Below, piece by piece: positions 3,186 through 5,447 of a DNA stretch of 5,447 nt. Within the stretch, counting starts at the first letter, position 1; each line of letters starts with the position of its first letter. The position numbers and the translations under genes are program-made. The notes under the pieces were generated by a model. That model had not been told where the DNA came from and did no database searches. It was given only the letters and a program-made list of their open reading frames with translations. Origin of the DNA: a virus (taxonomy: Duplodnaviria > Heunggongvirae > Uroviricota > Caudoviricetes); the IMG/VR virus record IMGVR_UViG_2737471848_000024; one strand, given 5' to 3'.

Positions 3186-3389
3186 ATGAGCAGCTTATTT
3201 TTAACCGAAGATGAATTGCTAATATTAACGGGCTGCAAATATGCAAGCCACCAGCGAAAATGGTTAATGGAAAACGGGCTTCCGTTCTATACCAATCGTA
3301 GTGGCAAACCGATTGTCAGCCGGGATCTATTTACCTGCAATAAAACTTTACCACCACGCGAGGTAGAGCCGAATTTTGGTGCGATCTGA
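3186..3389 (+). CDS. Small excisionase-like protein (putative recombination directionality factor), 67 aa
   Basis: Small ORF directly upstream of the integrase; its stop TGA (3387-3389) overlaps the int ATG (3389-3391) by 1 nt, suggesting translational coupling. Size and position are typical of xis in lambdoid int-xis modules. The call is mainly positional; the sequence (MSSLFLTEDELLILTGCKYASHQRKWLMENGLPFY...) resembles DUF4224-type small proteins from memory only. Confidence 0.55.
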   Translation: MSSLFLTEDELLILTGCKYASHQRKWLMENGLPFYTNRSGKPIVSRDLFTCNKTLPPREVEPNFGAI

Positions 3390-4414
3390 TGGGAAGACGA
3401 AGGAAAAATCCTGAACACGAAAAATTACCTCCAAATGTATACCCAAATAAATATAGTTATGTATGGAAACCAACATCCAGAGAATCTGTAACACTAACCG
3501 CCATCAAGGATGGTTTAGCTGCTTTATGGAAAAAGTATGAGGAAACTGTAAATAATCGCGATCGTGCAATGACATTCGGTCGCTTGTGGGAAAAATTCCT
3601 CGCCAGCGCCTGTTACAGTGACCTTAGCCCAAGAACACAAAAAGATTATCTGCAACATCAAAAAAAGTTGCTTGCCGTATTCGGTAAGGTACCAGCGGAT
3701 TCCATAAAACCAGAACACATCCGTCGATACATGGACAAAAGAGGGGAACAGAGCAAAACGCAAGCCAACCATGAAAAAAGCAGTATGTCCCGCGTTTACA
3801 GTTGGGGATATGAGCGAGGGTACGTGAAGGCTAACCCATGTGCAGGTGTAAGTAAATTCAAGGCCAAAAACCGCGAACGATATGTAACCGACAAAGAATA
3901 CCAGGCAGTATTAAGCGTTGCACCTCTTCCTGTTTTTATCGCAATGGAAATTGCCTATCTGTGTGCAGCGAGGGTTTCCGATGTGTTATCGCTGAAATGG
4001 GAGCAGATTGGAAACGACGGGATCTTTATCCAGCAAGGGAAAACAGGGAAAAAACAGATAAAAGCATGGAGTCCACGATTACAGGCGGCGATCGAAAAAG
4101 CAAAACAGTTACCAACATCCGCCTATGTAATCAGCAATCAATACGGCAACCGATATATGTACAAAGGCTTTAACGAAATGTGGGTAGAAGCAAGAAATCG
4201 CGCAGGCAAAATTTCAGGTATTTTAACCGACTTCACCTTTCATGATCTGAAGGCGAAAGGAATTTCAGACTATGAAGGAAGCAGTCGGGATAAGCAACTT
4301 TTCTCTGGTCACAAAACCGAGGGGCAAGTGCTAATCTATGACAGGAAGGTTAAAGTTTCACCGACACTTGATGTCCCGTTACCTGAAAATATTCCAAGAA
4401 AATATTCCAAGTAA
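3389..4414 (+). CDS. int: Lambda-family tyrosine integrase (site-specific recombinase), 341 aa
   Basis: N-terminus MGRRRKNPEHEKLPPNVYPN parallels the lambda Int arm-binding N-terminus MGRRRSHERRDLPPNLYIR. Catalytic region: box I Arg in AARVSDVLSLKW; box II TFHDLKAKG (lambda TFHELRSL); GHKTEGQVLIYDR (lambda GHKSDTMASQYRDDR) with the nucleophilic Tyr. It ends 52 bp before the tRNA 3' end. Confidence 0.9.
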   Translation: MGRRRKNPEHEKLPPNVYPNKYSYVWKPTSRESVTLTAIKDGLAALWKKYEETVNNRDRAMTFGRLWEKFLASACYSDLSPRTQKDYLQHQKKLLAVFGKVPADSIKPEHIRRYMDKRGEQSKTQANHEKSSMSRVYSWGYERGYVKANPCAGVSKFKAKNRERYVTDKEYQAVLSVAPLPVFIAMEIAYLCAARVSDVLSLKWEQIGNDGIFIQQGKTGKKQIKAWSPRLQAAIEKAKQLPTSAYVISNQYGNRYMYKGFNEMWVEARNRAGKISGILTDFTFHDLKAKGISDYEGSSRDKQLFSGHKTEGQVLIYDRKVKVSPTLDVPLPENIPRKYSK

Positions 4415-4421
4415 TTCCAAG
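4386..4421. repeat. Tandem direct repeats: 2 x 13 bp AAAATATTCCAAG plus a third partial copy TAATTCCAAG, spanning the int stop codon
   Basis: Read directly: 4386-4398 and 4399-4411 are identical; 4412-4421 repeats the ATTCCAAG core. The copies are read in different codon phases (NIPR vs KYSK), so the repetition is at the DNA level. Confidence 0.8.
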
Positions 4422-4466
4422 TGTGATTTTTGTCACTGACTTAATGATGTATAAGTGATTGAATTT

Positions 4467-4556
4467 TGGCGGAGAGAGGGGGATTTGAACCCCCGGTGGA
4501 GTTGCCCCCACTCCGGTTTTCGAGACCGGTCCGTTCAGCCGCTCCGGCATCTCTCC
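4467..4556 (-). tRNA. serU: tRNA-Ser (anticodon CGA), 90 nt including CCA, with a long variable arm
   Basis: Reverse complement reads GGAGAGATGCCGGAGCGGCTGAACGGACCGGTCTCGAAAACCGGAGTGGGGGCAACTCCACCGGGGGTTCAAATCCCCCTCTCTCCGCCA. It has a 7-bp acceptor stem, anticodon loop CUCGAAA (anticodon CGA) and a T-arm GGTTCAAATCC. It closely resembles E. coli serU as recalled, and mtfA is adjacent as in K-12. Confidence 0.9.
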
Positions 4557-4649
4557 GTTCAGATGGTTGCCATGATGCCAGGAAATTTGGCATTTTAACA
4601 GTCCCTGTCCGTGCAATTTTGTTCAAGTGACGAGTTTGCGAGCAAAACG

Positions 4650-5447
4650 ATGATTAAGTGGCCCTGGAAAGTACAAGAATCAGCACATCAAACTGCCCTT
4701 CCCTGGCAGGAAGCACTATCGATCCCCCTTTTAACGTGTCTGACAGAACAGGAACAAAGCAAATTGGTCGCTCTTGCCGAACGTTTTTTACAGCAAAAAC
4801 GGCTTGTTCCTTTACAGGGCTTTGAGCTGAATTCATTAAGAAGCTGCCGGATAGCACTTCTATTTTGCCTGCCCGTTCTGGAGTTAGGACTGGAATGGCT
4901 GGATGGTTTTCATGAAGTCTTAATTTATCCTGCGCCATTTGTGGTCGATGATGAATGGGAAGACGATATCGGTCTGGTGCATAACCAACGTATTGTTCAG
5001 TCAGGTCAGAGCTGGCAGCAAGGGCCTATCGTTTTGAACTGGTTGGATATACAAGATTCTTTTGATGCTTCTGGTTTTAACCTGATTATTCATGAAGTCG
5101 CTCATAAGCTGGACACCCGTAACGGCGATCGCGCCAGCGGAGTTCCCTTTATTTCGTTGCGTGAGGTTGCTGGCTGGGAACACGATCTTCATGCTGCAAT
5201 GAACAACATTCAGGAAGAAATCGAATTAGTTGGTGAGAATGCGGCGAGCATTGATGCTTATGCTGCCAGTGATCCTGCTGAATGTTTTGCCGTACTTTCT
5301 GAATATTTCTTTAGCGCCCCAGAACTTTTTGCTCCTCGTTTCCCTTCATTGTGGCAACGTTTCTGTCAATTTTATCAACAAGATCCTTTGCAGAGACTGC
5401 ATCACGCTAATGATACAGACTCGTTTTCGGCGACGAATGTTCATTAA
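4650..5447 (+). CDS. mtfA: MtfA (Mlc titration factor A / zinc-dependent peptidase), 265 aa
   Basis: Translation from ATG 4650 ([28 protein letters not shown]...) matches E. coli MtfA/YeeI as recalled, including the HEVAH zinc-binding motif ([10 protein letters not shown]), and gives the K-12 length of 265 aa. The ORF track start at 4611 adds 13 residues not present in the recalled protein. Confidence 0.9.

Follow-up and report, generated by a model that had tools for sequence, protein, structure and literature searches.

A probable integrase-proximal prophage junction of the Sp14/CP-933U type at the tRNA gene serU of Escherichia coli

The window, by which we mean the whole 5,447-nt stretch of DNA that was analyzed, carries toward its right end a probable excisionase gene (xis), a tyrosine integrase gene (int), the tRNA-Ser(CGA) gene serU, and mtfA (Table 1). 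The stop codon of xis and the start of int share one base (TGATG), and int is transcribed toward the 3' end of the tRNA, its stop codon ending at 4414, 52 bp before that end at 4467. ARAGORN predicted a single tRNA in the window, a tRNA-Ser with the anticodon CGA on the minus strand, and the Rfam tRNA model scored it at 57 bits against a threshold of 29. The predicted cloverleaf (-42.6 kcal/mol) has the long variable arm, the CGA anticodon, and an encoded CCA. The mtfA gene encodes the Mlc titration factor (DgsA anti-repressor); it starts with an ATG at 4650, and its complete coding sequence closes on the last base of the window. The first-pass annotation had placed the int stop at 4414 and the tRNA CCA end at 4467, with int converging on the tRNA, and was accurate in all of these coordinates. 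Its description of a 93-bp spacer followed by mtfA, as in the K-12 core, was borne out by the identity of 4557-4649 to K-12. It had further called this spacer a divergent promoter region; between 4350 and 4720, a scan for the sigma-70 consensus returned no promoter-like site, which speaks neither for nor against that label, and a terminator scan of the junction gave nothing useful.

When the window was aligned with K-12, homology began exactly at the tRNA 3' end (window 4467). The K-12 site consists of yodB, 570 bp, serU, and mtfA, with no integrase there, and where K-12 has the yodB-side flank, the window has the phage-derived stretch that separates int from the tRNA.

Table 1. Features of the window around serU
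Feature	Position	Strand	Description and basis
Probable excisionase (Xis)	3186..3389	+	67 aa, DUF4224; Pfam DUF4224 1.9e-15; PHROG phrog_1266 'excisionase' 3e-21
Tyrosine integrase (Int)	3389..4414	+	341 aa; Sp14/CP-933U type; Pfam PF00589, PF22022, PF14659
Two tandem 13-bp units AAAATATTCCAAG	4386-4398 and 4399-4411	+	Sequence and translation
Three direct ATTCCAAG repeats	Starts 4391, 4404, 4414; span 4391..4421	+	Candidate arm-type sites, P' arm
Spacer, int stop to tRNA 3' end	4415..4466		Phage-derived, rest of P' arm; homology to K-12 lost left of 4467
serU, tRNA-Ser(CGA)	4467..4556	-	Complete, regenerated, 90 nt; ARAGORN, Rfam 57 bits
att identity block	4467..4528	-	tRNA nt 29-90; direct repeat at yodB end in other strains
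Marker pair, variable-arm stem	4498..4509	-	tRNA nt 48:59, G:C here, A:U in K-12; alignment and fold
Anticodon stem-loop	4513..4529	-	Stem 4513-4517/4525-4529, loop 4518-4524, anticodon 4520-4522
serU-mtfA spacer	4557..4649		Core, 93 bp, identical to K-12 (alignment)
mtfA	4650..5447	+	Core gene; NCBIfam equivalog NF011939 539 bits, full-length; Pfam Peptidase_M90

The Int open reading frame matched Pfam Phage_integrase (PF00589) at 43.6 bits (cut-off 27.1) as well as PHROG integrase families, with PF22022 and PF14659 representing the N-terminal and central domains. Alignment with lambda Int located Arg I (AARVSD), His (FHDL), the second His (GHK), and Tyr (LIYDR), and the catalytic Tyr is probably that in ...LIYDRK. 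Lambda Int likewise has an N-terminal arm-binding region and a catalytic domain, with xis upstream of int, but it is only 24% identical to the window Int, whose box II motif HDLK has Lys in place of Arg311, the canonical second Arg. We read this Lys as a family trait and not a lesion, because the same residue occurs in the Ints of Salmonella phage ST64B (NC_004313) and of a sister prophage that OkiPb01684, the source genome, carries at serT. The lambda attP is about 250 bp long, with repeated arm sites on both sides of the core and the 3' end of int near the P' arm; lambda's own integration site lies between gal and bio, not in a tRNA gene, and its core measures 15 bp.

The three ATTCCAAG repeats run across the end of int, overlapping its last codons and the stop codon. 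Their 3 occurrences in the window compare with 0.30 expected, a number that none of 200 shuffles reached, and in about 130 kb of the Sp14 and B19374 loci every occurrence fell within an att arm. The ST64B Int is 59% identical to that of the window and also has a DUF4224-type excisionase upstream. The ST64B genome runs from int through three repeats and a 62-bp serU-like segment to a fourth repeat at about +103, so that in this relative a tRNA 3' segment is seen beside int in a phage genome. Its attP holds a spacer homologous to window 4415..4466, the repeat offsets are alike, and the 62-bp segment ends at the same GACCG base as the att block of the window. ST64B differs in its host, in its motif (TTTCTCA, not ATTCCAA), and in that int stops before the repeats and not inside them. 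The serT sister prophage (Int 56% identical; DUF4224 and 2,472-nt exonuclease genes shared) uses as its target the anticodon stem-loop of tRNA-Ser(UGA), which is almost identical to that of serU, has left a 60-bp tRNA repeat, and shares the arm geometry of the window, with the repeat motif ATACCAA (ATACCAAG). Unlike the window phage, it carries the attachment cassette inverted relative to int: its int adjoins the truncated tRNA copy by yccA, and its tail/cargo end adjoins the intact serT. We take it to be probably of the Sp4/CP-933M type. In the sister phages another motif occupies the same offsets, the register being conserved across the three phages, and the ATTCCAAG repeats, together with the matching far-arm copies, are most likely arm-type Int-binding sites.

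The two 13-bp units bear on whether int is a pseudogene. PGAP called it 'frameshifted' in OkiPb01684, B19374, and 2015C-3163 (pseudogene span 3389-4439), a label due to the second unit: with one copy, the open reading frame would be longer (345 aa) and end ...PENIPSNSKCDFCH* at 4439. Together with the Lys in place of the second catalytic Arg, this could mean that the integrase is a dead, frameshifted pseudogene and the junction the fossil of a degraded element in every carrier strain. We consider that unlikely, since the two-unit allele is the majority form, present in 1,052 genomes versus 45 with one copy (counted with allele-specific 40-mers, the two-copy allele matching a simpler one-copy probe at 32/40, exactly the 80% threshold). 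Both alleles occur within O157:H7. Only the last residues change (...PRKYSK vs ...PSNSKCDFCH), about 20 aa past the probable catalytic Tyr, and the Lys is shared with both relatives. The two-unit allele yields three repeats with the 13/10-bp spacing and tRNA distance of ST64B, and the serT-phage offsets agree within 1 bp (13/10 or 12/11 spacing). It is also the allele of Sp14 in O157:H7 Sakai, and circular Sp14 DNA was detected in that strain, at a low level, after mitomycin C (PMC2669165); according to Asadulghani et al. (PMC2669165), the Xis of Sp14 is probably non-functional, and circularization was only weak. The 'frameshifted' label is probably an annotation artefact of comparison with the rarer allele.

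The window is a 100% match to OkiPb01684, whose layout we took from one public assembly by walking the gene order against K-12 and inspecting every junction. The contiguous prophage in this genome ends at serT/hyaA and not at yodB, giving the order serU-prophage-serT. Elsewhere, yccA is followed by the 60-bp serT fragment and Int_T, and a third junction joins the small terminase gene, ISKpn26, and a zinT fragment, with yodB and the repeat missing. No serU repeat was found at the far end of the contiguous prophage, where serT stands instead, and the stretches of OkiPb01684 examined held no second copy of the 62-bp serU segment. One inversion, joining the serT and serU prophages, did not suffice to explain the layout, because nap/ccm lies at 2.70 Mb in the K-12 orientation; a second, IS1-bounded inversion (fliA/rihB) was needed and was confirmed, both fliA/IS1/rihB junctions being seen. 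The prophage thus recombined with its sister at serT, the IS1-bounded inversion coming afterwards, and its own far junction was lost through an IS-associated deletion.

The OkiPb01684 element is a hybrid bounded by serU and serT with two arms of the integrase-proximal type, and its junction is a stranded relic. Because its own far junction has been lost and both arms are of this type, the prophage should be unable to excise, and excision and circularization are predicted to be impossible in this genome. The gene set is complete and lambda-like from int to the tail fibres, as would be expected of one intact prophage still able to excise, but we regard that reading as very unlikely: the far end is a serT-phage arm (with ATACCAA repeats) abutting an intact serT, the 62-bp segment occurs only once in the stretches examined, the yodB side is deleted, and two integrase-proximal ends provide no P x P' pair.

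The first-pass annotation had proposed to check the junction by looking for a second, direct copy of the tRNA 3' segment at the distal boundary. In strains with the normal layout the repeat is present: in B19374, 62 bp of the tRNA 3' part recur in direct orientation at the far prophage end, adjoining yodB, and in O157 Sakai, Sp14 has a 61-bp direct repeat at the corresponding end by yodB. The prediction thus held in these two strains and failed in the source genome itself, where that end was relocated by inversion and then deleted. A naive repeat test on OkiPb01684 would give a false refutation, because the cognate yodB-side junction is gone. In EHEC-like genomes, a search for the att repeat where a contiguous prophage ends may come up empty, since recombination between prophages and IS activity can swap and delete the ends, as they did here.

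The att block takes in the anticodon stem-loop, the variable and T arms, the 3' strand of the acceptor, and CCA. Within it, the + strand of the window has C at 4509 and G at 4498, a compensatory double change relative to K-12 that keeps the 48:59 pairing. The far-end tRNA copies in B19374 and Sakai retain the host A/T at these positions. The two compensating differences show that the 3' part of the tRNA, from 4467 to at least 4509, was supplied by the phage. The G:C pair might instead be an ordinary host polymorphism with no link to the phage. Just two positions differ, and the association rests on marginal counts and samples, not on a genome-by-genome comparison. We nevertheless find this highly improbable, because in single lysogens the full gene is of the G:C type while the displaced far-end copy has A/T. 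In addition, the exact G:C-type tRNA is present in 1,179 genomes versus 1,150 with this int 3' end. The 42 empty sites that we sampled were 98.8-100% identical to K-12; 40 of them, at 99.4% or above, differ by at most one base and cannot carry both changes, and the one inspected of the two at 98.8% has both its differences in the flank. ST64B, finally, shows that phage copies of the tRNA segment diverge from the host gene.

The two markers also bracket the crossover, between 4510, just past the last phage-type marker, and 4527/4528, where the att identity ends; base-level cleavage positions can only be inferred. The anticodon stem-loop lies at this place and is a putative core site, in which inverted-repeat Int core sites would flank a 7-bp overlap.

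We then considered how the site is occupied across 5,426 complete E. coli genomes, using a 160-bp probe spanning the unoccupied site. Identity bands and a row sample were used with this probe, since the phage spacer happens to resemble the host flank over 16 bp, which confounds a count at 80% coverage. The empty yodB-serU-mtfA site was present at 99% identity or above in 3,939 genomes, and the same probe gave the prophage-type junction in 1,107; UC4224 also has an empty serU site. Some part of the window is matched in each of the 5,426 genomes, and only 811 hold at least 80% of it. The suggestion that the window captures an island at an integration hotspot is therefore upheld: this integrase neighbors serU in about 1,100-1,180 genomes, and the site is empty in K-12 and in about 3,900 of the complete genomes. 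Nor is the int-tRNA arrangement universal, as K-12 and the genomes with empty sites demonstrate. The serU gene has been documented as a site of prophages and integrative elements in STEC (PMC8767318). That int-serU-mtfA is the E. coli core arrangement and not an insertion junction is practically out of the question and already refuted by these counts and by the break in homology exactly at the tRNA 3' end of an integrase-free K-12 site, even though K-12 shares mtfA, the 93-bp spacer, and the tRNA 5' part without a difference and every genome matches some of the window.

We conclude, with a probability of about 0.92, that a lambda-like prophage of the Sp14/CP-933U type sits in serU, between yodB and mtfA, and that window 3186-4556 is its integrase-proximal junction (attL in lambda terms). 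Empty sites, far-end repeats, and phage-type markers agree with the initial proposal of a lambdoid prophage that integrates into a tRNA 3' end and regenerates it. The phage attachment site would carry its own copy of the last ~62 nt of the tRNA, from the anticodon stem-loop to the CCA, and Int, a lambda-Int-like tyrosine recombinase, would exchange strands within the anticodon stem-loop. After integration, the gene would be made of host tRNA nt 1 to about 30 followed by the 3' part from the phage, leaving the tRNA intact, and the displaced host 3' part remains as the 61-62-bp direct repeat at the other end of the prophage, adjoining yodB. The DUF4224 protein encoded upstream of int is the probable excisionase; we infer the activities of both Int and Xis. 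ON470580 and ON470583, which encode a 99% identical Int, were rejected as sources of a free-phage attP, being prophage predictions that include mtfA and asnT.

The element is of a known, ordinary kind and leaves the current understanding of phage integration unchanged. The annotated gene order is lambda-like (int-xis-recombination, immunity, replication, Q, lysis, terminase, head, tail, tail fibre), and the B19374 prophage has the same order. The nearest well-described counterpart is Sp14 of Sakai (CP-933U of EDL933), which the Sakai genome record annotates at serU and which lies at the same site, between yodB and serU-mtfA, with the same xis-int-tRNA layout. Its integrase, ECs_2773, is about 97% identical to the window Int, 8 substitutions and one 1-aa gap making up the 9 differences over 341 positions, and has an identical C-terminus and the same 13-bp repeat allele. 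The Sakai tRNA is likewise regenerated with the G:C pair, and its 61-bp far-end repeat has the host A/T. The two phages differ in immunity, replication genes, and cargo: Sp14 carries cI/cro, and espJ-tccP at its far end, whereas the window phage has RacR/YdaT-type immunity. In the window copy, unlike in Sp14, the original far end is gone and the element has become fused to a serT prophage.

Because the 13-bp unit determines how many arm repeats there are (three versus two) as well as how Int ends, slippage that adds or removes one unit might work in Sp14-type prophages as a heritable switch controlling how efficiently they excise and integrate. The serT and serU phages carry the attachment cassette in opposite orientations relative to int, so the prophages would be forced into inverted orientation and be prone to inversions spanning the terminus, of the kind that OkiPb01684 shows. 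We regard this combined scenario as speculative and rather unlikely.

The window marks the boundary between the core chromosome and a virulence-associated prophage type, the Sp14-type phages of other strains carrying type III effectors (EspJ/TccP or NleB2/NleH/NleF). Landmarks for serU junctions are position 4467, where host homology ends, the 62-bp att block, and the G:C pair, which flags a phage-rebuilt tRNA.

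Gene and profile searches reproduced the coordinates assigned to int, the tRNA, the spacer and mtfA in the first-pass annotation. The description of the 93-bp spacer as a divergent promoter region gained no support, since a consensus promoter scan across the junction found nothing. The N-terminal ~640 residues of the exonuclease gave PHROG matches, mostly to families of exonuclease or unknown function, and matched no Pfam family. Its gene is the one known in work on O157 as "Exo VIII-type"; genes of identical length occur in Sp14, the O157 Sakai prophage at serU, and in a related prophage at serT.

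Features of the junction (window coordinates) and rearrangement junctions in the source chromosome
Feature	Position	Strand	Remarks
tRNA-Ser(CGA) (serU)	4467-4556	minus	sole tRNA gene in window; Rfam 57 bits
Int ORF, 341 aa	3389-4414	+	Pfam Phage_integrase, phage-integrase central and SAM-like domains; PHROG integrase families
DUF4224 protein, 67 aa	directly upstream of int, 1-base overlap		PHROGs class: excisionase
Exonuclease, 823 aa	656-3127, upstream of DUF4224 gene		C-terminal Rv2179c-like 3'-5' exonuclease domain
mtfA	start ATG 4650		full-length NCBIfam equivalog
serU-mtfA spacer	4557-4649		93 bp
yccA, 60-bp serT fragment, then serT-phage integrase	L016/L015, 1.023-1.062 Mb		junction
serT-phage early and lysis genes, truncated small-terminase gene, ISKpn26, zinT fragment	L016/L015, 1.023-1.062 Mb		junction
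fliA(5')-IS1-rihB(3')	1.100 Mb (L019)		junction
fliA(3')-IS1-rihB(5')	2.659 Mb (L013)		junction

E. coli OkiPb01684 (NZ_AP042519.1), isolated from cattle in Okinawa, contains the window at 100% identity. K-12 has the order yodB, 570 bp, serU, mtfA, with no integrase, and its homology to the window begins in alignment exactly at 4467, the tRNA 3' end. When a 160-bp probe spanning the empty K-12 site was run on 5,426 complete E. coli genomes, 3,939 matched at ≥99% identity; another 1,107 fell in the 90-95% band of the prophage-type junction, and a smaller group had other elements adjoining serU. Since K-12 and these 3,939 genomes have the site empty, the int-serU arrangement is accessory, and the earlier interpretation of the region as an insertion junction is a correct reading of a junction of known kind; prophages at serU and serT are on record for STEC (PMC8767318). 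The detail added here (a marker pair, arm geometry, a reinterpreted frameshift label and a stranded state in OkiPb01684) refines that picture without describing a new kind of system. Among genomes with other elements at serU, similarity to the K-12 flank stopped exactly at the tRNA 3' end in three (H129-H131) and 16 bp before it in one (H115); the tRNA stays K-12-type in all four.

A direct repeat of the tRNA 3' segment had been predicted at the distal prophage end. It is present in other strains but absent, together with yodB, from the stretches of OkiPb01684 that were read. The B19374 prophage, which matches the window at 99.8% identity on the int side, is inserted between yodB and serU; at its far end 62 bp of the window (4467-4528) recur as a direct repeat, and a K-12-type yodB flank comes next. 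Sp14 occupies the same site with a 61-bp repeat, and its Int differs at 9 of 341 positions and shares the C-terminus. The repeat covers tRNA nucleotides 29/30-90, comprising the anticodon stem-loop, variable arm, T arm and acceptor 3' strand. The first ~180 bases of the window, missing from the B19374 prophage, are the end of an IS3-family element upstream of dicB (transposase CDS ending at 138); beyond the inserted element a partial dicB copy remains.

In alignment the window tRNA differs from that of K-12 only at 4498 and 4509. These bases form variable-arm pair 48:59, which is G:C in the window and A:U in K-12; the two changes compensate each other, and the fold retains the stem. Both B19374 and Sakai carry G:C in the complete gene and the host A/T in the displaced far-end copy; the tRNA 3' end to at least 4509 is thus phage-supplied. 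On these sequences, the exchange point lies between 4510 and 4527/4528, an interval containing the anticodon stem-loop (4513-4529). Exact copies of the G:C-type tRNA occur in 1,179 genomes and the int 3' end in 1,150. All 42 empty sites sampled were 98.8-100% identical to K-12; 40 of them, at ≥99.4%, cannot hold both changes because at most one base differs, and in the one of the two 98.8% sites that was read, both differences lay in the flank.

After int, the Salmonella phage ST64B, whose Int is 59% identical to that of the window, carries a diverged 62-bp version of the serU 3' segment, which ends at the same GACCG, and we infer that the attP of the window's phage was laid out likewise. All three window copies of ATTCCAAG (0.30 expected) fall within 4391-4421, and all remaining copies in ~130 kb of the Sp14 and B19374 loci belong to the far att arm, where an inverted one stands ~41-42 bp and a direct one ~105-106 bp beyond the core. 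Equivalent motifs, TTTCTCA in ST64B and ATACCAA in the serT phage, keep the window's offsets to ±1 bp: one copy sits at about +104, and three precede the tRNA 3' end by 76, 63 and 53 bp. The geometry is constant while the motif differs, a pattern expected of arm-type Int-binding sites, for which the repeats are candidates.

PGAP labels int "frameshifted" because a 13-bp unit, AAAATATTCCAAG, is doubled at 4386-4411; with one copy the ORF would end in SNSKCDFCH and a stop at 4439. Despite this pseudogene label, we read the two-copy allele as the normal form, since it occurs in 1,052 genomes against 45 with one copy, gives the same three-site spacing as ST64B, and is the allele of Sp14, for which circular DNA was found after mitomycin C (PMC2669165). 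O157:H7 strains include both alleles, suggesting recurrent gain or loss of the unit. Residues 285-288 of Int are HDLK (codons 4241-4252), with Lys aligned to the second catalytic Arg (lambda R311); the same Lys is found in the Ints of ST64B and the serT phage and is therefore a subfamily trait.

The serT phage of OkiPb01684 has an Int 56% identical to the window's and targets a nearly identical anticodon stem-loop. Relative to int, its att cassette points the opposite way from that of the window phage (L016 5283-5500, L002 23610-23801), so its int neighbours the truncated tRNA copy close to yccA, and its tail/cargo end, encoding an EspF-repeat protein and partial EspV, adjoins intact serT. When the OkiPb01684 chromosome was walked, the contiguous prophage ran from serU to intact serT beside hyaA (L001/L002, 1.433-1.481 Mb), where it bears the serT-phage arm. 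We read the remaining junctions (table); yodB and the serU repeat were absent at the ISKpn26/zinT-fragment junction. The window prophage is a hybrid with serU at one end and serT at the other, and all junctions fit one history. In the simplest version, homologous recombination between the serT and serU prophages, inverted because of the opposite att cassette, would have been followed by an IS1-bounded fliA/rihB inversion and then by an IS-associated deletion from the small-terminase gene to zinT, removing late genes, the cognate att repeat and yodB. Prophage-prophage inversions are well described (PMC8767318), and Sp14 and Sp4 have been described as near-twin lambdoid prophages (PMC2669165). 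Because both its arms are of the int-proximal type and a partner site is lacking, the element should be unable to excise.

Of the G:C-type genomes, at least YD786 (H174) has a single copy of the tRNA segment, and loss of the far junction is therefore not unique to OkiPb01684. The latter also carries, directly after mtfA, a yersiniabactin high-pathogenicity island at asnT (L001 25548-45447) that encodes an integrase of its own and a ybtS interrupted by an IS3-family element; two adjacent tRNA genes thus each bear an island.
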